Program-made: the position numbers and the translations under genes
From: a virus
Lineage: Duplodnaviria; Caudoviricetes
IMG/VR virus record: IMGVR_UViG_3300009068_000095
Location: 1-35,187 of that record
Length of the DNA: 35,187 nt
Strand: one strand, 5' to 3'
The notes under the pieces: model-generated
Databases searched by the model: none
What the model was told of the DNA's origin: nothing
Seen by the model: the letters and a program-made list of their open reading frames with translations, nothing else
Part shown: positions 1,678 to 29,579 of the stretch, piece after piece
How positions within the stretch are numbered: position 1 is the first letter of the stretch
How the letters are laid out: every line of letters starts with the position of its first letter

Positions 1678-1862
1678 ACGCTACGATAATTTACTTAAAA
1701 GATGGGAAAAACGGCATGGTTGAGGTCTCGATGGAAATTATCGGGCAGCCTAACCAATCTTTCCTATTGAGTAAGAACATTGGTGAAAAGCTAGCCGAGC
1801 TTAAGATTACTAAGTTTTGCGACAATGAGTTTACGCAAGAGCCGCCGGAAATGCTGCAATAA
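1674..1862 (+). CDS. hypothetical protein
   Basis: ATGA coupling; converges on the primase gene. Confidence 0.65.
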   Translation: MNATIIYLKDGKNGMVEVSMEIIGQPNQSFLLSKNIGEKLAELKITKFCDNEFTQEPPEMLQ

Positions 1863-2628
1863 GCAATTTCCCAGCTTCGTAAGCACCCAATCTTAATTCA
1901 GCGTCATTAAAATCTTCCTTTTGAATATCGGAAACCCAATGGGGATACCCTTGTGCTACCTTGATTCCTACGGGGTCATTATCAGCCACGATAACGCAGT
2001 CAGGATACGACTTTGCCATATCTGATAGATTGCCAGCAGAGAAACATACAACGAGCTTATAGCGGGTTTTGTTGCATTTTAGAGCCCGTCTTACAGATAA
2101 GGCAGTCGCCATACCCTCACAGAGTATCGGAATACCCTTGTTATCCATGATATATACCGCACCTTTATTGCATTGTCCGGCAAGAAACCGCTTAGTCCCA
2201 TCTTGGGATATGGTTTGCAGACCGGAAATATTCCCATCAATCCGCATGGGGATTACTAGATTACCTTCCCACACATACCCTTTTAGCTCGGGAAAACCCT
2301 TAGCCGCTAAATACGGGTGCGTTGTCTCTACGCATTGTGAGAGTATCCAACTTGCCCGCTTAGCTGCCGCCGCTTGACGCTGCAGGGTAATTTGCTCAGA
2401 TTTTTTGCGTTTAGCTGCTAATTGAGGGTCAGGCTTATAGTCCTGGCCTCTCCAAAGAACGGGCTTCTCATGCTTACTCCAATCCTGCAGAGCTCCACAA
2501 TTTCCAGAGTAAATATATGAACCATTCCGTTTATTAGGATGGTCTAAAGTCTTTACCCTTGTCCATTTGTCATATACGAGATGGTCGATAATTAACCCGT
2601 GCTGCTCTGCAAAAGATTCAAATGTCAT
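1831..2628 (-). CDS. TOPRIM-domain DNA primase (phage/plasmid type)
   Basis: HPYLAAKG, LVIPM, LQTI..DGTKRFLAG, ILCEGMATALS, IVADND and DFND TOPRIM motifs. Confidence 0.88.
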   Translation of the reverse strand: MTFESFAEQHGLIIDHLVYDKWTRVKTLDHPNKRNGSYIYSGNCGALQDWSKHEKPVLWRGQDYKPDPQLAAKRKKSEQITLQRQAAAAKRASWILSQCVETTHPYLAAKGFPELKGYVWEGNLVIPMRIDGNISGLQTISQDGTKRFLAGQCNKGAVYIMDNKGIPILCEGMATALSVRRALKCNKTRYKLVVCFSAGNLSDMAKSYPDCVIVADNDPVGIKVAQGYPHWVSDIQKEDFNDAELRLGAYEAGKLLIAAFPAALA

Positions 2629-4103
2629 GCTGCTTTCCTATACTGTTTTGATTTGGAGAACGCAATCATTCTGCTTTTAATCCAGCTAAGGGTCTGCTGG
2701 GATGGTGGGCGGGGCTCTACCTTTATTCCATTAGGATAGGCATCAAACTTCTCACGATACTTAATGGCTGCCCATCCGTCTTTATATCCCTTCATACGTC
2801 CGTAATAGACTAACTCGGAATAGAAGTGGGTATTTTGTATCTGGAGCTTCTTATTTGCCTTATCTAGCTCTTCAAGAGTGCCAGCTATGCTTATAATAGA
2901 ACTTAGAGCTTGCCTGACGTGTCCACAGGAGGAGCAAGTATTGTTCGGAGATGTCCAAAGTGCGGCACAGGCGGGACACTTTGCTGCTTTCTTTTCTCTT
3001 TCAGTAGGCTCACGCTTAGTCACCTCACCGCCGGTCTTGAGTTCCGTTACGCCGTCGTGGTATAGGCTTTCCCAATCATCCCTGAACCGCAGGAAATTAC
3101 CTGAATGGTCTAGCAGGACACCAAAATCCTTGCCTTCGTGGGGTCTTAGGATGCGTCCGATTTGTTGAACATGGCTGCTAAAGGACTTACTAAACGGTCT
3201 AGCAGAAATGCCAATACAAACATCGGAAACGTCAAAGCCACGAGTAAGGATATCAGTGGCAATAAGACCATGAATATTAGTGTCAGGTTTACCAAAATCT
3301 TCAATAGTATCTCGCTTGAAGTCATCATCTTCCTTGTATGAAATAGAAACAAAGTTATAACCGGCTGCTTTAAATTGAGCTACAAGTTCCTTGCCGTGCT
3401 CAACACCAGCACAGAACACAATAGTCTTCATAGGTTTGCCGTATATCTCATAGGTTTTTTTAACCCATTCCGCAACGATATCTCCGGTTATTTGAATGCC
3501 TCGGGAAGTAGCTTCTGCTTGAGACCATTCGCCGGCAATCAGTTTTACTCCGGTCATATCAATTTCTTTGGCGATATAAACCTTAAGCGGGACAACCCAG
3601 CCTTCTTCCACGAGTTCCTTCATGGGAGCTGCACCAATAACATTTGTGTAGATGTTGCCAAGACCGCTAGTAAACGGGGTGGCAGTAAGACCGACTACTT
3701 TAATTTGAGGGTTAGCCTTAATGAAGTCCACTGTTGATTTATACATGACATGGCACTCATCAACAATAAGCATATCAATATCTGGAAACTTGCGGCGGGC
3801 TAAAGTCTGAGACGAACAGATTTGGATAGGTTCAAATGGACGCTTGTTCCAATGACTTCCCTGTCTTACTCCATGTTTAATACCATATTTGGCTAATCTT
3901 TTACTGGTCTGGTCAACCAATACTATACGGTCTAAAACCATCGCTACCCGCTTACCTTCAGATGCGGCTTGCTGCATGATAGCCATAGCACATTCTGTTT
4001 TACCAAACCCTGTAACGGCACAGAGGATTTGGCGGGTATGTTCTTTGAAACCTTCGTTTAACTTTTGGATTACTTCAGATTGATGCGGACGCAATACTAA
4101 CAC
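2625..4103 (-). CDS. superfamily 2 (DExH) helicase, RadD/YejH-like, with C-terminal Zn finger
   Basis: LRPHQ, TGFGKT (Walker A), DECH, GLTATP, RGFD, QQIGRILR, LDHSGN, CPAC...CSSC; TAGGAG RBS with GTG start. Confidence 0.93.
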   Translation of the reverse strand: MLVLRPHQSEVIQKLNEGFKEHTRQILCAVTGFGKTECAMAIMQQAASEGKRVAMVLDRIVLVDQTSKRLAKYGIKHGVRQGSHWNKRPFEPIQICSSQTLARRKFPDIDMLIVDECHVMYKSTVDFIKANPQIKVVGLTATPFTSGLGNIYTNVIGAAPMKELVEEGWVVPLKVYIAKEIDMTGVKLIAGEWSQAEATSRGIQITGDIVAEWVKKTYEIYGKPMKTIVFCAGVEHGKELVAQFKAAGYNFVSISYKEDDDFKRDTIEDFGKPDTNIHGLIATDILTRGFDVSDVCIGISARPFSKSFSSHVQQIGRILRPHEGKDFGVLLDHSGNFLRFRDDWESLYHDGVTELKTGGEVTKREPTEREKKAAKCPACAALWTSPNNTCSSCGHVRQALSSIISIAGTLEELDKANKKLQIQNTHFYSELVYYGRMKGYKDGWAAIKYREKFDAYPNGIKVEPRPPSQQTLSWIKSRMIAFSKSKQYRKAA

Positions 4104-4166
4104 TAAGACTCCTAACTACCAAGAAACCGCTTGGCATCGGGGGGGGAAATACGGTTTATGTGAAGT

Positions 4167-4568
4167 TTATACAGGCTGTTTTAAGTCGCCGAGCCGACTT
4201 TGTAAGTCCCCCCGATATATAAATGATTGCACCTTTTGTCTTACTGTAATCTCATCTAACTCAACATACCATTCGTGTTTATACCTATACTTTTTAACTA
4301 GACAATTACCCAAATCTATGTCCTCATCAGAGTCATGCCGGCAAACGATAAGTAAGGACTCACGAGCATATCCAACCACATCACAAAGCCTCTCTAAAGC
4401 AAGTCTTTGTCCTAAATCCATTTCTTTATTACCACGCTTGGCTTCAATAAAAATAAAGTATTTATCATTAACTTCCATAAAGGCATCAATGTCAGTAGGG
4501 TATTTAGTATCAAACCGCAGATTCTCAAATACGCATTTTTGGTGAAAGCCATGCTGGTCTTTAATCAT
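4167..4568 (-). CDS. PD-(D/E)xK-like nuclease-fold protein
   Basis: PTDID...FIFIEAK...GQRLALERL; start 4568 chosen from the ATGA overlap. Confidence 0.65.
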   Translation of the reverse strand: MIKDQHGFHQKCVFENLRFDTKYPTDIDAFMEVNDKYFIFIEAKRGNKEMDLGQRLALERLCDVVGYARESLLIVCRHDSDEDIDLGNCLVKKYRYKHEWYVELDEITVRQKVQSFIYRGDLQSRLGDLKQPV

Positions 4569-4768
4569 TTTGCCTTGCTCTTCCAATAGTTTATTTGACC
4601 GACCGATTGCGCATTCTTGGTCTGGTAAAAATCACGGGAGGCTTGCAATGCTTTAATCTCCGCAGCTTGAGCCGCAATCTTGTTTTGAAGTTCCTCAATG
4701 ACAGCCTCAGCATCCCATTCCTCACCAAGGATTTCTTTCTCAAGTTCAAGTATCGTCTTCTCATTCAT
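4565..4768 (-). CDS. coiled-coil hypothetical protein
   Basis: IEELQNKIAAQAAEIKALQASRD heptads; ATGA coupling. Confidence 0.75.
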   Translation of the reverse strand: MNEKTILELEKEILGEEWDAEAVIEELQNKIAAQAAEIKALQASRDFYQTKNAQSVGQINYWKSKAK

Positions 4769-4944
4769 TTCAAACTTCTGAGAGCTTGTTCCAGTTGATG
4801 CTGTGTTGCTTTACTGTTATTCATTACTCTCTGAGCTTCATTACAGCGTTCTTTCCAACGGATAACTTGCTGGACTGAGCCGTTTTTTACGGCGTCCGGA
4901 ATTTTATTCATTTGTTCTTGTATTTGTTTTCTAATGTCGTTCAT
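4765..4944 (-). CDS. hypothetical protein (59 aa)
   Basis: MNDIRKQIQEQMNKIPDAVKNGSVQQVIRWKER...ALRSLK*; ATGA overlaps at both ends. Confidence 0.7.
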   Translation of the reverse strand: MNDIRKQIQEQMNKIPDAVKNGSVQQVIRWKERCNEAQRVMNNSKATQHQLEQALRSLK

Positions 4945-5105
4945 TTCACATCCAATAAATCTTCAGGTTTAATACCACGTTTTTCTAAGGCTATCTTAAA
5001 CTTCTCTAATGCCTGCTTCTCGTAATGGTTAACATTTGGGCGGCTCATACCTAATGCATCTGCTACTTCTTGCTGCGTCATATGGTAATAATCTTTTTGG
5101 TTCAT
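4941..5105 (-). CDS. sigma70 region-4-like HTH protein (54 aa)
   Basis: MNQKDYYHMTQQEVADALGMSRPNVNHYEKQALEKFK...; GGAGG RBS. Confidence 0.8.
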   Translation of the reverse strand: MNQKDYYHMTQQEVADALGMSRPNVNHYEKQALEKFKIALEKRGIKPEDLLDVK

Positions 5106-5184
5106 AAATTTCCTCCGGTCTTTTACTGTATGCCCGCTTTTTCAGTATTCCTATAGGTGTTTTCCATTAACAAACTTCCTTCTC

Positions 5185-5492
5185 TCATAGGACAGGACGA
5201 GAGGGTGATAAGCACATAGGATAAATATGTGAAGTCTCCGCATCTTCAGCCGACTTGCGTCCACTGCTCCCTGAGGTACTGTTTGTCTTCCAGAGCGCCT
5301 ATCAACTAGAGTCGGCCATACTCCCCTACATCACCCATCATGCTCTGTTCGTGTGGATACCCAGTCAAGTCCCACTGCGCCGTCCTGTCAAATCTTTCGA
5401 TATAAGCGCAACCTGTCTTTAATATCTCGGTCATTAGATATATCCATGTAAGGTAGCTGGATGAACCGTCTGTATCGTCGCTCTACGGCGGA
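5185..5492 (-). ncRNA. candidate large multi-stem structured RNA
   Basis: Nested helices 5191-5199/5381-5389, 5203-5209/5330-5336 and 5249-5255/5310-5316, plus local hairpins and a GAAA tetraloop on the - strand; no ORF of 60 aa or more. Confidence 0.6.
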
Positions 5493-5494
5493 AA

Positions 5495-5600
5495 AGGAAA
5501 AACCTCATAGGGTATGAAGTCTGATTGGACATTCGCTTATGTTTACTTCCCGCCACCTAAACATAAAAGAACAGTTCAGACCCCATACAGTATGAGGCTT
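5495..5600 (-). ncRNA. C4/CI-like antisense RNA / attenuator hairpin
   Basis: Long interrupted stem 5503-5597 followed by a U-rich tract on the - strand; its two single-stranded boxes are complementary to upstream boxes at 5604-5612 and 5629-5634. Confidence 0.65.
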
Positions 5601-5653
5601 ACAGCGGGAAGTTTAACATAAAAGAACCGTCCAAAGTCCGTTTACGCAAATGA

Positions 5654-5664
5654 AGTGTATCACA
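5654..5664 (-). promoter_or_regulatory. extended -10 promoter driving the RNA cassette and replication operon
   Basis: The - strand reads TGTG-A-TACACT. Confidence 0.5.
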
Positions 5665-5670
5665 AGATTT

Positions 5671-5750
5671 AAAAAAAGTGGAGCTGTCGCAAATATAAGG
5701 CAGACATTTAAGCACCTTTGGCACTCCGAAACATCCTCACGAGATGGACT
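5671..5750 (-). ncRNA. candidate ~80-nt small RNA
   Basis: TATAAT at 5759-5754; hairpin CATC..GTGA..GATG; three-way junction closed by GGAG/CTCC; T7 tail. Confidence 0.4.
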
Positions 5751-5782
5751 TTTATTATAATACCGGTCGTTTTACATAATAT

Positions 5783-5796
5783 TAGGGTTTACCCTA
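5783..5796. promoter_or_regulatory. palindromic operator-like site TAGGGTTTACCCTA
   Basis: Palindrome between divergent transcription units; related copies occur elsewhere in the window. Confidence 0.5.
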
Positions 5797-5825
5797 TGTA
5801 TATTTGGTGTAATATACGCTACAAT

Positions 5826-5840
5826 TGGTGCACCGCAACA
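5826..5840 (+). promoter_or_regulatory. PhaR-like box TGGTGC-ACC-GCAACA
   Basis: TGC-N3-GCA core lying between a candidate -10 (TAATAT, 5810-5815) and the GGAG RBS. Confidence 0.45.
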
Positions 5841-5858
5841 TAACTTATGGAGATAACC

Positions 5859-5996
5859 ATGTTTGATTTTGAAAAGCAATACAAAGATGCATTAGCAAAG
5901 TTTGAGACTGTAACCAAGCAGAGCAAAGAAGCGTACGAGTTTTGGTACAACTGCGTAATGGACTCATGGAAAGACTTGTATAGCAAGAAGAAGTGA
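5859..5996 (+). CDS. small helical protein, possibly phasin-like (45 aa)
   Basis: MFDFEKQYKDALAKFETVTKQSKEAYEFWYNCVMDSWKDLYSKKK*; GGAG RBS; has its own terminator. Confidence 0.7.
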   Translation: MFDFEKQYKDALAKFETVTKQSKEAYEFWYNCVMDSWKDLYSKKK

Positions 5997-6002
5997 TTTA
6001 AC

Positions 6003-6028
6003 GGGGGGTATAACCCCCCTTTTTGTTT
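6003..6028 (+). terminator. intrinsic terminator
   Basis: GGGGGGT-ATA-ACCCCCC followed by TTTTTGTTT. Confidence 0.8.
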
Positions 6029-6115
6029 CTCAAAGTGTACAAAATGGGGTGATATGTACACTTTTTGCAGTTTTTTATACATATAGGTATTAATATGTAT
6101 AGACAATAAACACTT

Positions 6116-6466
6116 TTAGGTATCAATTAAGTATTCTTTAATAGTCACTTGGCAGCCGCCGCCCTTAATTTTCTCGCCCCGCTCCACTATCAGCTTCCAG
6201 ACTTGCTGGTCGTCGTCGTAAATAATTCCGTTCATGGAGTCTAGGACGCACTTGCAAATGTTATCTATGTCCAATAGCCGCTTGTCTCTTGGATAAAGGA
6301 TGATGGATACTTCTACTGGCTTATCTCCAAATGTAGCAACGTTCCTACATATTTCTTGGACGGCTTTTTTAAATTCCATTCCACGCTTGGAAATATACCG
6401 GCGATGACCGCTAGCCAGCCAATAAGCATTGACGCTACAGGGATAAGGAAATACTAGGGTAAGCAC
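6116..6466 (-). CDS. rusA: RusA-family Holliday junction resolvase
   Basis: PYPCSVNAYW, PRDKRLLDIDNICKCVLDSM, YDDDQQV. Confidence 0.9.
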   Translation of the reverse strand: MLTLVFPYPCSVNAYWLASGHRRYISKRGMEFKKAVQEICRNVATFGDKPVEVSIILYPRDKRLLDIDNICKCVLDSMNGIIYDDDQQVWKLIVERGEKIKGGGCQVTIKEYLIDT

Positions 6467-6501
6467 TTATATAACACATGAGAGAAAGTGGGTACGATGT
6501 A

Positions 6502-6530
6502 TTGACTTGTCATATTGGAAGCATTATATT
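6502..6530 (+). promoter_or_regulatory. sigma70 promoter
   Basis: TTGACT, 17-bp spacer, TATATT, followed by a GAGGAG RBS. Confidence 0.75.
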
Positions 6531-6550
6531 GGACTTAGAGGAGACTGTCT

Positions 6551-6658
6551 ATGAATGATAATTTAATGAGTATTGCAGCTACATCTATTATTGTAATCCT
6601 TGCGATTGTGTTCTTTCTTTGTGTACTCATAGGCAACCGTGTATGGTCTTGGCTATAA
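6551..6658 (+). CDS. small membrane protein (35 aa)
   Basis: MNDNLMSIAATSIIVILAIVFFLCVLIGNRVWSWL*; GAGGAG RBS. Confidence 0.65.
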   Translation: MNDNLMSIAATSIIVILAIVFFLCVLIGNRVWSWL

Positions 6659-6822
6659 AATATTTTGTAATTTGTTTTTCAATTGTTCTTTGCGCCCATG
6701 TGTTACATGTAACGCACGACCCTAAGATTGTGTATGCCTGTTCCGAGGTGACAGAGGACGACCCGATTGATGTTCAGAGGAAATGCTATGGAAATAAAGT
6801 TAGAAATCACCAGAGAGAATGA
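6643..6822 (+). CDS. membrane-anchored hypothetical protein
   Basis: N-terminal hydrophobic stretch; YACS...PIDVQRKC. Confidence 0.6.
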   Translation: MVLAIKYFVICFSIVLCAHVLHVTHDPKIVYACSEVTEDDPIDVQRKCYGNKVRNHQRE

Positions 6823-7229: not shown

Positions 7230-7540
7230 AAACACGATTTGATTTAGAGGACGAGATATTTTCCGTAGAGCAGACCGGCAAAGATATTGAAATGCTGTTT
7301 AAAACTTACGGCGACCGCTCTTGGCCTATGACTGAGGATGAGGTAATGAATGCCCTTCTTGGAATCTACACCCTCCATGAGATGCGCTGCTATTGGTTAG
7401 ATGATACTTACAAACAAGTTCACCAGCTTAACGAGTACGCAACTCCGGAAGTAAAAGCCCGCCGAGAAGAGCTTATGGGCAAGATTTTAAAGAAGAAGAA
7501 AAAGAAGAAAAAAGAAATAGACATAGATGGGCGCTGCTAA
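7226..7540 (+). CDS. hypothetical protein
   Basis: RFDLEDEI...TEDEVMNALLGI; poly-Lys near the C-terminus. Confidence 0.75.
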   Translation: MKTRFDLEDEIFSVEQTGKDIEMLFKTYGDRSWPMTEDEVMNALLGIYTLHEMRCYWLDDTYKQVHQLNEYATPEVKARREELMGKILKKKKKKKKEIDIDGRC

Positions 7541-7683
7541 TGAACGACATGATAAGAGCACGAGTAAATAGTGAAGTGAAACAACAAGCTGAAGAAATTT
7601 TAAAGGCTCACGGACTTAACTTATCTGTTGCCATTCGGATGCTTTTAACCAAGATAGTTAGAGAAAAAGAATTTAAATTATGA
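7540..7683 (+). CDS. RelB/DinJ-like ribbon-helix-helix protein (47 aa, orphan)
   Basis: IRARVNSEVKQQAEEILKAHGLNLSVAIRMLLTKIVREK matches the DinJ/RelB N-domain pattern; TAATG and ATGA coupling. Confidence 0.8.
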   Translation: MNDMIRARVNSEVKQQAEEILKAHGLNLSVAIRMLLTKIVREKEFKL

Positions 7684-11617: not shown

Positions 11618-11828
11618 ACTTGAGAATGAGGGTGGCGGTACCATTGCACTTACAGATATTGGTTGTAAAACTGTTGTTGGTGCCAATATTGCTTACTCTA
11701 ATCATCGTAATGGGAAACATATTTTAGGATGCTGGGTATCAGACAAAGAGAATGTGTACGTAAAGTGGTCTGATGGAGATATTAGGGAATACCCTTGGGT
11801 TAATTTTAAAAGGGATACCAAAATATGA
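11547..11828 (+). CDS. secreted hypothetical protein
   Basis: Signal peptide MKKILITGLLLLSLSASA; NEGGGTIALT, GCW; GGAGGAG RBS. Confidence 0.75.
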   Translation: MKKILITGLLLLSLSASAAGIIAELENEGGGTIALTDIGCKTVVGANIAYSNHRNGKHILGCWVSDKENVYVKWSDGDIREYPWVNFKRDTKI

Positions 11829-14175: not shown

Positions 14176-15134
14176 ACGTTGTTTATGCAGCCTCTGAACT
14201 CAAATTCGTCCTCACCGCAGACCTGAATAAGCTCTGGCAACATCAGTCTACCACGTTCAAAAGACAGTAAAGCAAACCCTGAACGCCAGTCTTTGCAGCC
14301 ATCTTCCGTGTAATGGGTGAACTGTTCCCCATAAATGTCCGCTAAAGTGCCTGTTTGAACGCCATAGCGGGTTCCGTTGTAGTCGGTAATAGGTTGCACT
14401 GCCAAATTGTGTGTGTGCCCTGTAACCATGTTTACGCCTGAATTAAGGGCATTGGCTCTTCCGGCTCCAAAACCACCTTTCCAACGGTGTTTAATGCAGG
14501 TATCCTCATTAACCCAATACGACCAGCAAGGCTGCCAGTGTGGGAAGTGGTCTTTAAGGGTAAACCCTGATACTCCCTCATACTGGGGTGCTTGAGCTGC
14601 CAAGAACGTTTCAAAACGGGCGTCATGGTTTCCCATCGTCCAGATTAATTGAGCTCCTATAGCTTCATTTTGGATGTTTCCCATGAAATCCTGGCAGGCT
14701 TCTAGCTCTTCTTTAACGGTAGGGCTATGTGTCCAGCCAATCCTAGGGTGTCGGCTATTCTGAGAGCCGTCAAATACGTCTCCATTTGCAATCACGACCT
14801 TAGGACGGAATTCCTTGATTATCATCAGAAGGGCTTTATAAGCCGTTGTATATTCGTCAGGCCAGAAATGGGCATCTGAGAAGACTACTACCCTTCCCTT
14901 ATCCATTTCAATACCCCTGCGGGCATTGCCAATGACTTGTTCTAGCTTTTTCAGGGGGGTATATCTTTGGTCTTCTAGTGAAGGAAGACTAATATTTAAC
15001 CGGTTTTCTATGGAACGGCGCCGATTGTAAACTGACCTAACGTCTAATCCATGTTCTTTAGCAAATTTCTGCGGACTGCCAATTTTTCTCCAAGATTCTA
15101 TAAATTGGTCATCTGTTAAAAAATATTTAGTCAC
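14172..15134 (-). CDS. calcineurin-like metallophosphoesterase with N-terminal HTH
   Basis: SDAH, NGDVFD, GNHD, GHTH. Confidence 0.88.
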   Translation of the reverse strand: MTKYFLTDDQFIESWRKIGSPQKFAKEHGLDVRSVYNRRRSIENRLNISLPSLEDQRYTPLKKLEQVIGNARRGIEMDKGRVVVFSDAHFWPDEYTTAYKALLMIIKEFRPKVVIANGDVFDGSQNSRHPRIGWTHSPTVKEELEACQDFMGNIQNEAIGAQLIWTMGNHDARFETFLAAQAPQYEGVSGFTLKDHFPHWQPCWSYWVNEDTCIKHRWKGGFGAGRANALNSGVNMVTGHTHNLAVQPITDYNGTRYGVQTGTLADIYGEQFTHYTEDGCKDWRSGFALLSFERGRLMLPELIQVCGEDEFEFRGCINNV

Positions 15135-15213: not shown

Positions 15214-18200
15214 CTATTTTTTTAATGACTTTCTCATCTCTTCAACTTGCCTTGCCATGTCAGACATCATGATTTTTATGCGTGCCATTTCGTCTCTTCT
15301 GTCTGCTGGGTCTATCGCCTGATTAGTCTCTACCATGCGAGCTTGTTTACGCAGCTGAGCCAATTGTTTAGTAGTCTGGTCGTATACTTTAGCAAGAGCA
15401 ATATCATCGCCTCTTTCTTCCATGACTTTTTGTAACTTCTCAGAGTCACCAATTTCGGCGTAATGACGCATATCTGCTAGGGCTGACTGGATTCTTTCGT
15501 TGTTCTGATAGAACTGCGTCATGTACTTAGATTGAGTCTCCGGCATGGTCTTGATAAAGCCCATAGCCAATGTATCAATAATTGGCGGATGAACCTTTGC
15601 ACCCTCTTGGAATGGCTCTACAGCTCTATCTGCAGTCGATACGGCAGTAGCACCCATCCAGCCTAAGTAAGCCTTAATAGCGTAATCCATTTGTACTGGA
15701 GAGAACCCTTGTGCATCTGGATTAAATGTCAATACTTTAGAGGCTGCCTCAGATACGCCGCCTAATGCTTTAGCAATACCGCTTGTTCTTTCGGTAGCAC
15801 GTTCTTGCTTGGATAAACGCTCCATACCAGCAGATTCGATTGGAGCACCGGTAAAGCTGTCTTTATTAGAATACAAGTCAATCATCGGCTTAATCATTTG
15901 TGGCATTGGATTAAGAGAGAATGTATCCATCAAGATAGAATTCAAACGATTACCAAAGACTTTGCCTTCTACGTTCTCATCTGTAATCTGCTCTAATGTA
16001 CGCTCTGCAATCGTTCCAAGGGCGCCAATTTCAAATGGCTTAGGAATGCGGAATTGAACATCATCAATCTTAAACCACCAGAAGTTATCTCTATCCCAAT
16101 CCTCACGGCGTTGGAAGTCTTCATCGTCTTTGTATGCGCTGTAAAGTGCTAAAGACGCCAACATAATTGCACTAGAGACCGCCATAAAGCGTTGTGCTTT
16201 TTTCTTATCATTAATATCTAAGGGTTTACCCGTAGCCATATTATAGATAACACGAGATGTTGGAGCAAAGCCGTCTCTGCCTAACTTGTATATACCCTGT
16301 AATCGAGCATTAAAGAACGGAACTACAGAACCAATTACTTTAATTGTACGGAACTGACCTTGCATAGAGAAGTCCATGAGGTCACGGGCTGCATATGACG
16401 CCTCTAAATGAGACTTACCGCTGTCTATTAATTTCTTATAAAGAGCTAGACGGTTGGCATTTTCAAACTTATTACCTTGTTCATTATACCAATCAAGTGC
16501 CTTTTGTAGATTTGCCTTAATCTTTTCTGGTGTATCTAGGATTGTTCCAGTAGATACGCCTTTGTCAATCAGTCGCTTAATTAGCTTAGCTTGGTTGCCT
16601 TCGTGAGCTGTGCCCATTTCAAAAATGCCGCCGCCAGCCAATGCTGCTACGAACGTTGGATTGCCTTTTTTAGATAGGGCGAGTCCATTATAAATGTTGC
16701 TTGCTAGATTAGGAGATAAATCAGAGACGGCAACGGAAGACATGGAGTCACGGATTAAGTTGCGAATCTTGTACGCTGGGCTCAGTGTTACACCATAACG
16801 TAGTGCGTTAGTAAATCCCTTGGCAATATCCAAGAATGCTGACTTTGGTCCAAGATAAGAGATGGTAGAGATAGCATCTACTAGGTCTGGGTCTGACAGC
16901 GTATAGTGAGCTGTTTTACCTTCTTGCATAATCTTCACGGTATTAGCAGGATACTTGCCATCCATCGGCTTAGACTTCTCTGCTACATCCATCATCTCTG
17001 CAGCTTTAATTGTATTTTGTGCTGCAATATTTTTAACGGACGCTGAGAGAATGTGTGACCAATTCATCAAGACGTTTTCCATCAAGTCATTCGTCTTCTT
17101 TTCGCCGCCCTTTAATGCTTTGCTAAAGTATTGACCGGTCAACTTAGAGGATGAGCTGACAGACTGAACATCGCCGTCTTCCATAGCTTTATAAAACGGA
17201 ATGTAGTAAATGTCATTGGAGAAGTTCTGATAACCTTCTGTATCAATAATTCCGGCTTCCCTTGCCACGTTTAATACGGAACGATTAAGAGCATTCTCTT
17301 CATTCAAAGCAGTCTGATAAACAGATAAACGGGGTTTGCCGTCTAATTGACCTTTTGTTAATTCATTGCGGCCTGCAATAACATCTGCTGGGAATGATGG
17401 TTGAGCTGGTTCTTTTAAACCTTTTCTATCTTTAGCAGGAATTTGCTTCCATTTAGCATACTTCTCAGCTACCTGAGCATCACGGTTTAATGCTTTCCAT
17501 ATTTGGTATTGGTCTACTTCAGAACCTAGCGGAGCAAGAATTTCTAATAGACCTTTGGTGCCAGGCTTAATGTTTAGCGCCCCGTTATCTAGGAATACTT
17601 GACCGTACTCTAGCAATCCTTGAAGACCGCCGTCAATAGATTTGGACAGACGGGCTTGCATATACGCTTCATCGGAATAGTTTTTAATGGCACGGAACTC
17701 ATCAAACACACCAGTAACCATGCGGTCAAAGAAATTAGTCCTTAGATTATCAAACTTCTCTTTAACAGTAGCCTTCTCTTGAGTAAACTGTTTACGTATC
17801 TTTTCAGCATAGTCTGGGTCAATACCTTCAGCTACCTTTAATGTTTTAGCTCTTTCAGCACGGGCTTTTTTCTCAAAACGAATATCAGGATTTTCTGCGC
17901 TAAATGCACCGGTATTGCCAGTAGCAGATTTAATTTGATTTGAATCAAATGGTATGTATTGTTTTGGTTCTCCACCGAAGGCTTCTCTTACTTCAGGAAA
18001 AAATCTTGCCTCATCACTTGTGGTAATGATGCCGTCGTACCCTTGAGATTTCCATATATCAATTTGTTTTTTAATATCTTCTTTGCTTTTCCCAAGTCTT
18101 TGACTAAAACTATTGATTTGCATTGCATCTAAATAAAGAGGATTTTTTATTGAAAGAAATGCTGGGTAAACACGCCCACCTTCACCGCCAACAAATTCAT

Positions 18201-21200
18201 TGGCATACTCTTTCGTGTCATTAACTTGGTCTACTGCTTCTTGTGAATTGCCTTTTTTTAACTTAATTGATTGATTGCCATCACTTGTGTATTTAAAAGA
18301 ATCATGGTCAACGACTACATTTTTTAACACTTCAAATTTATTTTTACCTAAATATTTATATACCGGACCGTCTTCTCCACCTTCTGCATAAAACTTTCCT
18401 ACCTCTAACTTACCTAAATCAGAAAGAACGGATACATAGGGTACTGTTTGACCAACAGCAGATGTATCTTCAGATAATGTATATTTATTTAAAAGTCTTT
18501 CTCTTTTTCTTAAATATTGGTCATTTGTATATGCATTTGCTTCATCGGTATTTTCAGTAAACCAAGATGCCGGGTCAAAAATACTAAAATCCTCTTTATC
18601 AGTGCCGTGATAAACAACCTTTGGGCTGCCGTCCTCATTAACAACTTTGCTATCCCCAAACCATTTAGCAAGATTTTGCTCTCTAGCTTTTCCAGTAATA
18701 GTTTGTTTACCTTTTAGTTTGCCGGCTCCTGCCTCTTGGAATACATCTTCTGCAGTTCTGTAGCCATTACCTTTTAACCAGTTACCAATACGTTTTAGGA
18801 AGTTAACAACCCTAGACATAATGGATTTAACAGCTGGAGCTTGTGTTTGAACATCAGCAAAAGCATGAGCGATAGCTTCTTCTAATTGAATTTCTGTTGT
18901 CTCGTCCCCATAGCTATTGGCGATATCATACTTAGCCATCCATTCAGAACGGGCTTTTTGCTCCAATAGATTCCAGTCTGCAGCAGAGAATAGACCTAAA
19001 TCTTTCATAGCGTGTAGTGCTTCGTGGTTAAACGAACGCAACATATTGTCGCCAGATAAGGATAGTTTAATTAACTTGTTTAAATACAAACCATTGACTG
19101 CCGTCATTTTCCCGTTGATATACTCATTAATAGAATCTTCAAAACGAAGACCAACGTCGTTTAATCCCATGCTATCTAATGCTTGACGCAAAGAACGCAT
19201 TAGTTTTTTCTCATCCGCAATAAACTTATCTGCAAATGGAGTGGCTGTTTGTTTTTCGTATAGGTAGTTTTTCTTAGAGCCGTATTGAACATCTTTTGCC
19301 AACAAGAAACGTCCAACCTGAAGCACTTCCGAAGCCGATACAACCGGCTGCGTATTAGAGCGGTCGTAGAAATAAGAATGGCGGAAAGGGTCTAAACTAA
19401 TTTGAGACCATGCTGGGTCATTTAGTTTTTCCTGAACCATTTTATAGGCGTCTTCAGGAGACATGTTTACCCACTCGCCTTCAACAGTTTGCTGAGGCAT
19501 CTTATATTCTTGACCCGTAGCAACCTTTAATGCTGCCTTTTCATTACGGGGCTCAAATTTAACATTCTTAACATATGCTGTACTAGAGTATCCAATAACT
19601 TTTCCATGAGTTCCTTTAGTTCCCTCACGGTGAATAGAAACAACGCTACCGCCTTTTTGAAGGGCGTTAATATCCATTCTTAAACCAACTTTAGTGCCGT
19701 TCTTAATGTCCGGATTAATATCATCTATCTGATTAGACTTAAGAACTTCCTTCATTTTTTCTAGGGATGTTGGAGCGTCCGGCTTGGAAACCATAGTAAT
19801 TGGCATATAGCGATTTACATATTGCTCAAACTGCTCTCTATTCATTGCTCCTTGCTGCAATAAATTAGCGGCAGCAACAACCTGAGGATGGCGTCCCTTG
19901 GGAACTCTTAATCCTTCTGTTGGCAATTCTGGTAGCCCAGCAACTACAGGCTCTGCAATTGGTTCACGAGCACTTTCTTCCGGCACTGCTTCTGAAAAAT
20001 AATCATCTACCGGAGGCGATTCAATAGACACTCCCAATATCTCACCATTTGGACCAATATTGGTAGAGGGAACTACTGGCTCTCTTTGAGCGTATTCCTC
20101 TGGGGTTACAGGGCCAGCTTTAGCACCCTTTTCTGGCGCTACAAACTCTTCTGATAACTTTGCTGCTGTTTGCTCTTCGGAAGGGATATTTTTAACAAGC
20201 TCTTTACGTCTTTGAACTTCATCATCTAGCTTCTCATATTCATTAAAAATAGCTTTATATTGAGCATTAGCTTGTTCTAATCCAGGTGTCGACACAATGT
20301 CGCCATCGTAAAGCGCTTTAATCTTATCTGTTAAAGCATTAACGCCGCCATTGTCATTAGGGTTAAAGAACTCTTCGTCAGACAAATATCCTACGTCATG
20401 AGCAATTCTTGCTAAATCATCTAAATCTTGACCTTTGGGACGGTCATTAGTAAAAAAACCTTTTTGCTGTGATTTGGTTAATAACTTATTAGTCGGATGC
20501 CGTGGATTAATAAATTCGCCATAATAATTACCCTTTAATGGGCGGGCTTGTAAAAACTCTTTAAACGCATTATTTGCTTTTGTAACCTGTGCACCAGCAG
20601 CTTCCAAGTCCTTAGCCATAGCCTTGACTCTTTGCTCATATCCTTTAGTTTCAAAGTTGTATATGTCTTGTTCTGTTGGGTTAATTACAACTTTTTTGCT
20701 ATCTTTAAAGGTTTCTATAATTTTGCCATTAGCGTCTAAAAGGTTAACGCCGCTTGCTGTTTTATTTGGAACGCCTTCAAAGAACTTAACACCCTCTACT
20801 GGGTCAAATACGGCAACTGTCTGCATTGGAGATACTGCAGGCTCTTGTGGTTTAGGAGCAAAGAATAGTCCGCCTTCTGGAGTAGCGTTTTTAAACGCCT
20901 CTTCCGCTTGTTGACGGCGTGCTGCTTGTTCTTTAGTAACAGTCTCTTTATGGGCAAAGAACTTTTGCATCGTAGGAGAATTGGCTCTTGCCTCATCCCA
21001 ACGGGCTTTCATAATAGCGGCTTGGTCTTCTGGCTTAGCAAAGGCTTCAGTGGTTCCCGTTGCAGGTGGCGGATTCATACCAAAACGCTCTTTAAAGGCA
21101 GAACTTTCGCTAGTGGCTACTCTGCCATCAGGGAACACATAAAACGTCTCAGAACCTACAGAGGTAGGTGCATTAGGGTCATATGACAATGCAGGACGTG

Positions 21201-22272
21201 GGATGTCTACAGGCTGTGGTTGATTACTTTCCTTGGCTCTAGCTTGAGCTTCCTCTACCAGTTTTTTAGCGTTTGCTAATTCATTGGCATTGGCTGAGTT
21301 TACAAGGCTAGACTTCAGACCAAAGGCTAAGCCACCGAGAGCTCCTAGACCTGCTGCTGCACCAACACCCTTAAATATATCTGTATCTGGTTTTACTGCT
21401 TGTAGTTGAAGGTTAGACGCTAATTGACCACCAGCCTCTTCTACACCTTCACTTAGGGTTTCCCCTAATGTTCCACGGATAATTCCCGTTTTAGGAGCTC
21501 CAGCCATACCACGGGTTAATGCTCGTTCAATGGTAGAGCCTGCACCAAAAGACGTTCCAACAGTTAATGCTGCTGCTTCAATAGCCGCTATACGGGCTCT
21601 AGAAAGAGCTTCTTTAACGGCTGAATCTTTGTCATATCCTTGGGAAATAAGCTCGTCATAGACCTTCTCATAGGTGTCAGAACCGATGTCTGCACCCTGC
21701 ATGATTGCGCCGGTACCAATAGCTCCACGGGTTCCTGATTTAGCCAACGCCTCTTCGGTGGCGTTTCTCATGAGCATCTTAACGCCCTGCTTAGTCGCTA
21801 ATCCGCCGCCCAATGTTCCTGCTAAATTTGGAATCTGTTCAGATAAGAATGAGGTTAATAGGGCTGGGTCTGTAAACGTGCTTTTAATTGCAGTGCCGGC
21901 TTCTTCCCAAAAACCCTCTGCTTGATTGATTTTCTGAGCCCGTAATGCTTCTTTGGCTTTTAAGACTGGAGATTTAGCTTGTTCAGCAAACTTCTCAAAT
22001 TGCCGTGCAGCACCTTGAAGTCCTAATTCTCTTTCGTCTGGGGTAAATACACCCATTAACTCACCGACTTGACCCGGTAATTGTGCTAATCCAGCAACAC
22101 CTTTTCCAAGACCTGCTGCAATATCAGTTGCCGCCTCACCCCAAGTACGCTTCTCATTAAGGGCTAGCTCTGGGTATGCGTTTAATATCTTTGCCTTAGC
22201 AGCGCTCGGGTCTAAATCATCCGGAATGTTTTCAACTAACGTCCCGTCAGGTAACTGAATGTTGTAAGGCAT
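15214..22272 (-). CDS. giant polyvalent (probably injected) protein: zincin-like + ART-like + LPD38 domains
   Basis: HEALH...EEAIA; WFGDSKVVNEDGSPKVVYHGT...QIKSATGNTGAFSAENPDIRF; WDRDNFWWF...RIPKPFEIG...PMIDLYSNKDSFTGAPI. Confidence 0.85.
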   Translation of the reverse strand: MPYNIQLPDGTLVENIPDDLDPSAAKAKILNAYPELALNEKRTWGEAATDIAAGLGKGVAGLAQLPGQVGELMGVFTPDERELGLQGAARQFEKFAEQAKSPVLKAKEALRAQKINQAEGFWEEAGTAIKSTFTDPALLTSFLSEQIPNLAGTLGGGLATKQGVKMLMRNATEEALAKSGTRGAIGTGAIMQGADIGSDTYEKVYDELISQGYDKDSAVKEALSRARIAAIEAAALTVGTSFGAGSTIERALTRGMAGAPKTGIIRGTLGETLSEGVEEAGGQLASNLQLQAVKPDTDIFKGVGAAAGLGALGGLAFGLKSSLVNSANANELANAKKLVEEAQARAKESNQPQPVDIPRPALSYDPNAPTSVGSETFYVFPDGRVATSESSAFKERFGMNPPPATGTTEAFAKPEDQAAIMKARWDEARANSPTMQKFFAHKETVTKEQAARRQQAEEAFKNATPEGGLFFAPKPQEPAVSPMQTVAVFDPVEGVKFFEGVPNKTASGVNLLDANGKIIETFKDSKKVVINPTEQDIYNFETKGYEQRVKAMAKDLEAAGAQVTKANNAFKEFLQARPLKGNYYGEFINPRHPTNKLLTKSQQKGFFTNDRPKGQDLDDLARIAHDVGYLSDEEFFNPNDNGGVNALTDKIKALYDGDIVSTPGLEQANAQYKAIFNEYEKLDDEVQRRKELVKNIPSEEQTAAKLSEEFVAPEKGAKAGPVTPEEYAQREPVVPSTNIGPNGEILGVSIESPPVDDYFSEAVPEESAREPIAEPVVAGLPELPTEGLRVPKGRHPQVVAAANLLQQGAMNREQFEQYVNRYMPITMVSKPDAPTSLEKMKEVLKSNQIDDINPDIKNGTKVGLRMDINALQKGGSVVSIHREGTKGTHGKVIGYSSTAYVKNVKFEPRNEKAALKVATGQEYKMPQQTVEGEWVNMSPEDAYKMVQEKLNDPAWSQISLDPFRHSYFYDRSNTQPVVSASEVLQVGRFLLAKDVQYGSKKNYLYEKQTATPFADKFIADEKKLMRSLRQALDSMGLNDVGLRFEDSINEYINGKMTAVNGLYLNKLIKLSLSGDNMLRSFNHEALHAMKDLGLFSAADWNLLEQKARSEWMAKYDIANSYGDETTEIQLEEAIAHAFADVQTQAPAVKSIMSRVVNFLKRIGNWLKGNGYRTAEDVFQEAGAGKLKGKQTITGKAREQNLAKWFGDSKVVNEDGSPKVVYHGTDKEDFSIFDPASWFTENTDEANAYTNDQYLRKRERLLNKYTLSEDTSAVGQTVPYVSVLSDLGKLEVGKFYAEGGEDGPVYKYLGKNKFEVLKNVVVDHDSFKYTSDGNQSIKLKKGNSQEAVDQVNDTKEYANEFVGGEGGRVYPAFLSIKNPLYLDAMQINSFSQRLGKSKEDIKKQIDIWKSQGYDGIITTSDEARFFPEVREAFGGEPKQYIPFDSNQIKSATGNTGAFSAENPDIRFEKKARAERAKTLKVAEGIDPDYAEKIRKQFTQEKATVKEKFDNLRTNFFDRMVTGVFDEFRAIKNYSDEAYMQARLSKSIDGGLQGLLEYGQVFLDNGALNIKPGTKGLLEILAPLGSEVDQYQIWKALNRDAQVAEKYAKWKQIPAKDRKGLKEPAQPSFPADVIAGRNELTKGQLDGKPRLSVYQTALNEENALNRSVLNVAREAGIIDTEGYQNFSNDIYYIPFYKAMEDGDVQSVSSSSKLTGQYFSKALKGGEKKTNDLMENVLMNWSHILSASVKNIAAQNTIKAAEMMDVAEKSKPMDGKYPANTVKIMQEGKTAHYTLSDPDLVDAISTISYLGPKSAFLDIAKGFTNALRYGVTLSPAYKIRNLIRDSMSSVAVSDLSPNLASNIYNGLALSKKGNPTFVAALAGGGIFEMGTAHEGNQAKLIKRLIDKGVSTGTILDTPEKIKANLQKALDWYNEQGNKFENANRLALYKKLIDSGKSHLEASYAARDLMDFSMQGQFRTIKVIGSVVPFFNARLQGIYKLGRDGFAPTSRVIYNMATGKPLDINDKKKAQRFMAVSSAIMLASLALYSAYKDDEDFQRREDWDRDNFWWFKIDDVQFRIPKPFEIGALGTIAERTLEQITDENVEGKVFGNRLNSILMDTFSLNPMPQMIKPMIDLYSNKDSFTGAPIESAGMERLSKQERATERTSGIAKALGGVSEAASKVLTFNPDAQGFSPVQMDYAIKAYLGWMGATAVSTADRAVEPFQEGAKVHPPIIDTLAMGFIKTMPETQSKYMTQFYQNNERIQSALADMRHYAEIGDSEKLQKVMEERGDDIALAKVYDQTTKQLAQLRKQARMVETNQAIDPADRRDEMARIKIMMSDMARQVEEMRKSLKK

Positions 22273-28986: not shown

Positions 28987-28991
28987 AGGGT

Positions 28992-29579
28992 TTACCCTAA
29001 TATAGATAGAGCTTTGGCAATTTTGGCTTTACGGTCATCTAAACCAGTTAAACCACCGTTAATACGTTTAGTCATTGTCTCAAAATCACCACTATCTGCC
29101 AAGCTGTTTAAGCCCTTCTTGTTCCAGAACCAGCCAGCACTTAATGCCGCATATCGTGCATCCAGCAATAAAGTAGGGTCAGAAAGAAAATCAACGCCAA
29201 TACCCAGTCCGCAGTTTGCATAGTTTTCCTTACCAGTTAGCTGGATGAGTCCTCTGCCCAAATACTTAGCAGCTTCTTCCTCACTAGTATTACCTAGCCT
29301 GCCGTTATAGACCTTGCCAGCTATCTTAGCTGGTTGACGGGCGTATTGGTCTGCAATCTCTTTTGTGGGAAAACGACTGGGCCAAGTCTTCATTAGACCT
29401 TCAGCGCTGTAATTTAAGTTTTCTTGAAGAGTCTTGAAATTTCCAGACTCGTGAGCACATTGCCCTAAAAAACAAGCTTGGCGAGCGGGAGTAGAAATAT
29501 CATATTTGACAAAAGTCTCTTCTAGCGGGGCAAGCCACTGATGGTCAATACCCAGTTTGTCTAGCTGGTCATACGTCAT
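28992..29579 (-). CDS. GH19-family endolysin
   Basis: [44 protein letters not shown]. Confidence 0.92.

Follow-up and report, generated by a model that had tools for sequence, protein, structure and literature searches.

In the satellite phage P4, transcription of the replication genes is halted when the CI RNA pairs with the sequences seqA and seqC (PMC4825925). Other RNAs of this kind are C4 of phages P1 and P7 and IsrK/SeqA of Gifsy-1. A transcript can also open an origin instead of a protein initiator: R-loop origins are known in ColE1, where RNA II is controlled by an antisense RNA of about 110 nucleotides (nt) (PMC5043065), and in T4, at oriF and oriG (PMC3016281). In a third kind of system, the Eru1 unit of Stx phages, an SF2 helicase and a Toprim primase replace O and P (PMC8044961), and T1 and TLS have neither a polymerase nor iterons (PMC11447400). 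We analysed a tailed-phage genome fragment, IMG/VR record IMGVR_UViG_3300009068_000095, all 35,187 nt of which we call the window. On its minus strand, about 650 bases without a long open reading frame (ORF) precede an operon that encodes a helix-turn-helix (HTH) protein, two ORFs of 59 and 67 amino acids (aa), a protein with a PD-(D/E)xK motif, an SF2 helicase, and a Toprim primase, which is the last gene. We propose that a pseudoknotted RNA in this leader does the work of a DNA-binding initiator by marking and opening the replication origin, and that it is gated by a switch like those of P4 CI and C4. We put this forward tentatively, as we rate its chances as close to even but somewhat short of that.

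The switch lies upstream of the large RNA (Table 1). As in P4 and P1, a small RNA on the leader strand is complementary to an upstream target of the same transcript: segment A sits between the promoters P1 and P2, and segment B about 60 bases downstream. P1 was missed by a promoter consensus scan, and P2 (with a TG-n-TAnAAT-like box) is absent from the list in the first-pass annotation, which had been made from the letters of the window and a list of its ORFs. We aligned 22 leaders and folded the transcripts of 26 distinct switch cores. None of 100 shuffles of the window's core (5647-5492) folds as well as the core itself (z -3.5). Across the aligned leaders, the A:B pairing energy averages -30.3 kcal/mol for cognate and -20.6 kcal/mol for non-cognate segments, and in 15 of 22 no other B pairs better than the cognate one, with 16 distinct alleles of the B loop; the permutation test on these pairings takes no account of relatedness. 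Judged by covariation, segments A and B pair in an allele-specific manner and segment X alternates between pairing with itself and pairing with segment Y. In the first of the two folds (A hairpin, X:Y rod, and B hairpin), 97.2% of 678 cells are paired and 6 of 31 pairs are compensatory; in the second (A:B, X hairpin, and Y hairpin), the figures are 89.4% of 528 cells and 5 of 24 pairs, two pairs being poorly aligned.

Folding predicts the X:Y rod for all 26 of the transcripts that start at P2, which would be without target A. For nascent P1 transcripts, before Y has been synthesized, A:B is predicted in 22/22, and if A is blocked, X:Y is predicted in 22/22. The Y hairpin is weak (median -8 kcal/mol, versus -29 for X:Y), and the antisense RNA pairs with the leader's own 5' part at -35.6 kcal/mol. 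A plus-strand look-alike of target A within rusA (6356-6387) was taken as chance.

The likeness to P4 CI lies in the allele-specific pairing seen here and the premature termination before the replication genes in P4. In contrast to P4 and C4, the window's switch is not detected by the Rfam models for C4, c4-a1b1, IsrK, and their relatives, even at E <= 10; it is followed by the large RNA instead of the kil/icd/ant ORFs; and its small antisense RNA seems to come from its own promoter, unlike P4 CI. The second downstream target of these systems (seqC, or a2/b2) might be represented by the pairing of X with the downstream Y, except that Y is probably part of the small antisense RNA itself. Nor are the switch and the large RNA a pair like RNA I and RNA II, because the pairing of segment B with the large element is no stronger than that with shuffles (-27.4 versus -25.9 +/- 2.9 kcal/mol), and no second B target was found there. 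The ColE1-like arrangement in the first-pass annotation, with the large element as an RNA II-like primer or guide, thus fails in this detail: the antisense RNA is on the same strand, no RNA from the opposite strand that would complement the large RNA was found, and a helicase and a primase are among the phage's own genes. The T4 origins differ in another way, as they need no specific RNA sequence, unlike the origin proposed here.

The large RNA, which we call type A, was defined by comparison. An alignment of eight sequences contains three helices, one of them crossing, with 99.5% paired and 8 of 23 pairs compensatory, versus 39-54% paired when the helices are slid out of register; the alignment amounts to two groups, and the helices were initially read from the window's sequence. 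Structural conservation among relatives, the lack of which the first-pass annotation had named as refuting its proposal, is present. The single-sequence fold of the large element is no better than shuffles (z -0.84 for 5106-5520, and -0.95). The loop of its GNRA hairpin alternates among GCAA, GAAA, and GUAA. Direct searches with type A reached two close lineages only; distant homologs (L349-L355) appeared among loci fetched for another protein, and a profile of the close copies alone matches L355 (E 1.7e-6) and L352 (E 0.007). A wider family, F (16 sequences), has the crossing-helix topology in common with type A and many different stem sequences. Its kinship to the window's RNA is only probable, because the F profile by itself does not detect that RNA; the two are connected through a series of intermediates and through a descriptor based on both groups together. 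No Rfam model matched any of 19 loci with type-A, F, or other slot types, and a scan of the whole window gave nothing at gathering score (we dismissed the window's matches to pistol, E 0.45, and RsaF, E 1.1, as below that score). The RNAs are real, and they are absent from Rfam.

Type A occupies a slot that different phages fill with different RNAs. After 44 distinct switches we found type A in 16, type B in 27, and type C in 1. Type B is the Rfam family Betaproteobacteria-1 (RF02932): relatives with type B score 70-97 bits, and its covariance model has no match in the window. The two RNAs share the slot behind the same switch, a wealth of pseudoknots, and the same replication-gene contexts. 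Unlike Betaproteobacteria-1, the window's RNA is about 305 nt, has another topology, and lacks a covarying direct repeat. Those repeats are found in an extension of type B, about 90 nt beyond the Rfam model, at L004:3031-3105 and 30 other loci: two short direct repeats, 47-52 nt apart, change together between phages and are followed by an AT-rich tract. They have no consistent complement elsewhere in the loci and could be iterons or a guide for RNA-DNA pairing. In other relatives we saw, by eye, different switches and different long non-coding inserts; seven loci (L012, L027, L030, L036, L059, L076, and L318) have unrelated antisense-type leaders and long non-coding slot inserts without an Rfam match. 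The switch, the slot RNA, a second element before the helicase (element 2, described below), and the genes reassort among relatives, so the earlier view of the parts as one fixed module does not hold.

The company that type B keeps is informative about the slot. We examined 85 distinct type-B loci, of which 58 were informative; in the other 27 the sequence ends too soon downstream. An SF2 helicase lies within 3.5 kb in 44 of the 58; 5 continue with a short O-like gene, 3 with a ParB-type gene only before the sequence ends, and 1 with a T7-type primase-helicase, and in 1 the RNA is directly behind a primase. Thus, Betaproteobacteria-1 is found with three modules: SF2 helicase plus Toprim primase, T7-type primase-helicase, and truncated O plus P. 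In the cultured phage AP1 and in L248, it lies directly downstream of the primase, which counts against a role as leader because a leader for those genes would not sit there. Our literature search on Betaproteobacteria-1, structured RNAs at phage origins, and truncated initiators with non-coding RNA found no description of these elements in the papers listed, most subscription papers being outside the search; Betaproteobacteria-1 is not mentioned by name in the main text of PMC5737381, the survey to which the family is attributed.

A link to replication comes from initiators that lack a part. Type-A homologs are found upstream of O-like initiators that are reduced to their C-terminal domain. 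In the best 80 of 564 confirmed loci of this domain, the short O-like genes have at most 56 open codons upstream, and they match the C-terminal part only of initiator profiles (positions 180-262 of 383 of phrog_270 for L355; also L246 and L212). A slot RNA lies upstream in 55 of 70 distinct truncated-initiator loci (type B in 32, F in 16, and A in 7; 8 loci are too short to judge), a count made with A and F profiles that had been built partly from such loci. Among phages with full-length initiators, a slot RNA was present within 1.8 kb in 0/4 GenBank controls (six GenBank phages were fetched among 123 matches); these four come from other hosts, which weakens the comparison. In L355, the order is cro, a promoter, another antisense-type leader, the type-A RNA, two small ORFs, and the short O domain. 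Because related phages carry the same RNA upstream of an initiator without its DNA-recognising half, the RNA likely marks the origin. PfAn1, considered as another case of a gap plus a truncated initiator, was ruled out: it has an unannotated full-length O-like initiator (L431:1293-2007) between cro and P.

In the window, in agreement with the first-pass annotation, profile scans found no O/DnaD-like gene (the record is a fragment), and no iteron-like repeat family with more than two copies is among the 20 largest of the 35 families for 3900-6700. The absence of an initiator is ordinary, because in published Eru1 phages the SF2 helicase and Toprim primase replace O and P; TL-2011c, PS-1, and Fels-1 have the same pair in the O/P position and, like T1 and TLS, no initiator or polymerase (PMC8044961, PMC11447400). 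The window's helicase is 29.6% identical over 99% to the Eru1-type helicase, and inspection by eye shows a PD-(D/E)xK-like ORF ahead of the helicase in TL-2011c and Fels-1 as well. Unlike the window, the lambdoid Eru1 cases are under cI/Cro control, and Eru1C (DUF1367/NinB) after the primase and the upstream LexA-type repressor of the Eru1 unit have no match among the scanned window ORFs. In three relatives (G001, G006, and G007, which are 66, 100, and 100% complete; no type-A record is more than 66% complete), a scan of 102 of 240 listed ORFs, chosen from the non-structural regions, found no initiator, polymerase, or integrase, and no tyrosine integrase was found in 5/5 records. The protein module is of a known kind; it is the RNAs that are uncatalogued in Rfam.

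The switch and slot-RNA profiles have no match in TL-2011c, Fels-1, or PS-1. PS-1 has a 600-base non-coding gap between cro and the helicase (L425:2387-3001; folding z -2.1 versus mononucleotide shuffles), and TL-2011c and Fels-1 have a G-rich non-coding block in common (L424:2420-2630 and L426:2280-2520). The gap and the block are origin candidates in culturable phages.

In the mechanism that we propose, the switch would decide whether transcription reaches the large RNA and the helicase and primase genes. A fresh P1 transcript is predicted by folding to trap A:B before Y is made, which would leave only the weak Y hairpin and let the polymerase read on. The P2 RNA, without A, is predicted to fold into a 21-bp X:Y rod before the U tract and to expose the B loops. 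On binding A in trans, it would drive P1 transcripts into the rod and so terminate them. By the logic of P4 CI, no cI protein would be needed for immunity or copy control. We take the polarity by analogy from P4, and it could be the reverse, as IsrK shows. The read-through RNA would fold into the knot and stay at its template, as an R-loop or via tethering by a protein, and the opened site would be offered to the SF2 helicase and primase or, in relatives, to a truncated O domain or a T7-type primase-helicase. A pseudoknot before the ribosome-binding site may tune translation of the helicase. More broadly, and with more doubt, we suggest that in many tailed phages the DNA-binding half, or all, of a lambda-O-type initiator has given way to one of a number of unrelated pseudoknotted RNAs, each of which specifies the origin and is gated by an allele-specific antisense switch, to give a modular class that spans three helicase/primase systems.

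Several observations weigh against an RNA-marked origin. The link of the large RNA to an origin is one of co-location. A:B wins at equilibrium in only 5 of 26 full P1 transcripts, so the A:B step needs kinetic trapping. Among helicase phages, type A is confined to two lineages, and of 57 distinct close helicase loci, only 23 show a profiled RNA and 25 with at least 2 kb upstream show none; in many of these, long chains of ORFs may push the leader outside the available sequence. Even among the 70 truncated-initiator loci, which were found with a query seeded from three type-B loci and form one related group, 7 with at least 2 kb upstream show no profiled RNA; both GenBank phages with short initiators also lack one (1.8-kb flank); and there are often several ORFs between the RNA and the short initiator, which can be up to about 2 kb apart. 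TL-2011c and Fels-1 have a short non-coding gap only. For an R-loop in particular, the longest G run in the window's RNA is 4 and its G skew is mild (0.15, versus 0.05-0.11 in genes); T4 UvsW removes origin R-loops (PMC3016281), and the nearest solved relative of the window's helicase is RadD.

A different explanation, which we consider unlikely though it has to be taken seriously, is that the large RNA is a cis-acting expression element of the early operon (a put-like antiterminator, a stabiliser, or a processing scaffold) and that replication starts elsewhere or by recombination. This would fit the position of the RNA, which in the window and in most relatives heads the operon, immediately behind the U tract, and which in L265 and L355 follows cro, where nut and put sites are located. 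Recombination genes are at hand in the window (Sak, an exonuclease, and RusA), and four of the 58 informative type-B loci precede RecE-like genes, with no replication gene in the available sequence, which counts against an origin as well. Such an element would leave the link to N-terminally truncated initiators unexplained, and also the position behind the primase in AP1 and L248, though there it could be a leader for the next genes.

The compact pseudoknotted fold of type A, with its conserved single-stranded motifs, would also suit an RNA that acts in trans, as a decoy against host defence or as a scaffold for the nuclease-fold protein, the primase, or the truncated initiator, its place in the early operon being a matter of timing only. 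All 4 type-A helicase contigs have the PD-(D/E)xK gene and lack a ParB-like gene that is retained in 50/50 other close helicase loci. We think a role in trans improbable: this swap comes from two lineages only, L349-L355 have no match to the PD-(D/E)xK gene, and no dedicated terminator was seen after the RNA. We give even less credence to the suggestion, made in the first-pass annotation, that the element acts as folded single-stranded DNA (an ssi/G4-type origin) for the helicase and primase, with the RNA incidental. It would share the same comparative link to replication genes, and covariation alone cannot separate RNA from single-stranded DNA. RNA is nevertheless favoured because of the G-U pairs, the varying GNRA loops, and the constant sense orientation behind promoters; UUCG loops also occur. 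Among these explanations, we prefer an RNA that marks the origin. The earlier placement of the large RNA where an initiator gene would be keeps its support insofar as the RNA is tied to modules without a full initiator.

The region before the helicase (4104-4216) had been described as one structured element. It is conserved, and it consists of two: the mobile motif that we call element 2, and an H-type pseudoknot. The single-sequence fold of 4090-4220 is unsupported (z -0.54). The core 16-mer of element 2 occurs in 66 viral loci, with a conserved tail in 60 of them, and two additional loci have a compensatory base pair. It behaves as a mobile cis motif, found ahead of the SF2 helicase, of terminase genes, or of a DUF927 primase that belongs to a different module; in the window, it overlaps the last ~15 codons of the PD-(D/E)xK gene. 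Its hairpin and UAAAUA-type linker align with the P1 hairpin and linker of the pistol model (RF02679), with 22 bits in the window and 25-30 bits in 4 of 9 loci scanned. We rejected element 2 as a pistol ribozyme, as it is below the 34.5-bit gathering score everywhere and lacks the full fold (P2, P3, loop pseudoknot, and cleavage site). The apparent P3 in the window belongs to the separate helicase pseudoknot, which is absent from copies of element 2 before other genes. Near one copy, L100:2413-2481 has a weak hammerhead-like match (33 bits, below threshold). Of 87 distinct helicase 5' regions (one row being the window's own DNA), 73 have the H-type pseudoknot at a distance of 5-20 bases upstream of the start codon, versus 14 of 300 shuffles, and both of its stems covary. 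It may be a translational operator, like that of T4 gene 32.

The minus-strand leader as a whole (5106-5760) is better conserved than the genes. DNA identity to the related locus L003 is 82.6% for the switch and 82.0% for the large element, versus 71.3% for the helicase, 74.7% for rusA, and 61.5% for the primase. The succession that had been read from the window alone (small RNA, promoter, antisense/attenuator, and large element on one strand ahead of the genes) is borne out. The longest hidden ORF in the leader is 55 aa, on the opposite strand; there is no LexA box near the promoter and no plus-strand promoter-like site in 5106-5760; no tRNA or tmRNA was found in the window; and blastn of the leader against GenBank phages gave chance matches only. 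The small RNA ahead of P1 is present in 17 distinct variants among the fetched loci. They were located via its 11-letter motif UCUCGUGAGGA, so the invariance of UCUCGUGAGGA is true by construction. Their 5' stem covaries (CAUC/GAUG, CUUC/GAAG, UAUC/GAUA, and GAUC/GAUC), a -10 box lies 7-10 nt upstream in most variants, and a stop codon precedes the small RNA in four; it has no Rfam match. Metatranscriptome contigs of close relatives span 5119-5601 (X3, 497 nt) and 5357-5524 (X5). This coverage speaks for presence only: coding parts are covered too, the contigs give neither strand nor ends, and they could derive from DNA.

Table 1. Features of the leader and of the operon behind it, in window coordinates
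Feature	Position	Strand	Details
-10 box of small RNA	5759-5754	-
Small RNA, ~75 nt	5671..5748	-	5' hairpin with conserved UCUCGUGAGGA motif, then intrinsic terminator
Putative promoter P1	5654..5664	-	extended -10 TGnTAcAcT; predicted start ~5647; conserved columns in 22/22 leaders
Putative promoter P2, internal	5610..5618	-	extended -10; predicted start ~5603; 22/22 aligned leaders, 26/26 distinct cores
Target A (seqA / a1b1-like)	5601..5647	-	hairpin 5639-5624 with variable loop; variable A2 box 5611-5602
Antisense RNA/attenuator	5492..5603	-	X 5600-5578; B hairpin 5571-5532 with specificity loop; B1 5534-5525; Y 5522-5500; U tract 5502-5492
Large pseudoknotted RNA, type A slot RNA, ~305 nt	5185..5490	-	from comparative alignment
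Type-A helices	5389-5380:5200-5191; 5336-5330:5209-5203		crossed by pseudoknot helix 5347-5342:5296-5291
Type-A GNRA hairpin	5261-5252	-
HTH protein, 54 aa	4941..5105	-	Sigma70_r4, E 6.5e-6; Sigma70_r4/HTH_3
59-aa ORF	4765..4944	-	homologs in relatives 34-95% identical
67-aa ORF	4565..4768	-	matches only the C-terminal ~50 aa of relatives' ParB-like protein at the same place
PD-(D/E)xK-motif protein (VRR-NUC-like lead)	4167..4568	-	motif PTDID...FIEAK
Element 2, ~75-nt motif	4141..4213	-	outer stem; invariant hairpin 4199-4184; A-rich linker; CCUGUA
H-type pseudoknot	4117..4140	-	directly 5' of helicase ribosome-binding site AGGAG 4113-4109
SF2 helicase, 492 aa (ResIII/DEAD, Helicase_C), Eru1A-like	2625..4103	-	phrog_16, E 4e-78
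Toprim primase, 265 aa (Toprim_3)	1831..2628	-	phrog_2249, phrog_510

The earlier calls of HTH, nuclease-fold, SF2 helicase, and TOPRIM primase genes agree with the profile matches and, for the nuclease fold, with a motif that is invariant in 25/25 aligned PD-(D/E)xK-like sequences. This ORF has no Pfam or PHROG match and no sequence match in the PDB; an Atlas match at rank 17 to VRR_NUC, on 14% of members, is a lead only. The helicase search returned 73 viral loci. In relatives, the gene for the 54-aa HTH protein is also found after the helicase, or is absent. The 67-aa ORF is the remaining C-terminal coil of the ParB-like protein, which at full length in relatives is phrog_1033 and whose residues 215-266 align to 4723-4568 (tblastn, E 1.7e-9). 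A 12-bp palindrome is scattered over the window, exact at 5784-5795, 14557-14568, and 28987-28998 and with one mismatch at 11784, 16221, 21455, and 27544 (12 matches at up to two mismatches, versus 4.2 expected); relatives have 2-5 exact copies, and the window has kept its sites despite the loss of the N-terminal part of the ParB-like protein. Elsewhere in the window we found ejection, tail, lysis, and recombination genes; profile scans of its ORFs gave no match to terminase, portal, or capsid, and the contig of a close relative extends leftward into terminase genes. A conserved 49-aa ORF (5847-5996, plus strand; terminator 6003-6025) is inverted relative to several relatives and has weak phasin-like Atlas scores only (0.75-0.77). 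A 2352-aa polyvalent-type protein with ART-PolyVal and LPD38 domains (15214-22272, minus strand) lies among the ejection genes, and a RelB-like 47-aa protein stands alone at 7540-7683 (plus strand), with no cognate toxin seen.

Even if the RNA does not mark an origin, four comparatively supported RNA motifs without an Rfam match remain, and the switch, which is protein-free and allele-specific with at least 16 alleles, offers potential orthogonal regulators. If our proposal is correct, structured RNAs would direct phages that have only an SF2 helicase and a Toprim primase, such as the Eru1 Stx phages and T1-like phages, to their origin. Tailed phages would then have a new way of recognising an origin, and an orphan Rfam family and several uncatalogued ones would gain a function.

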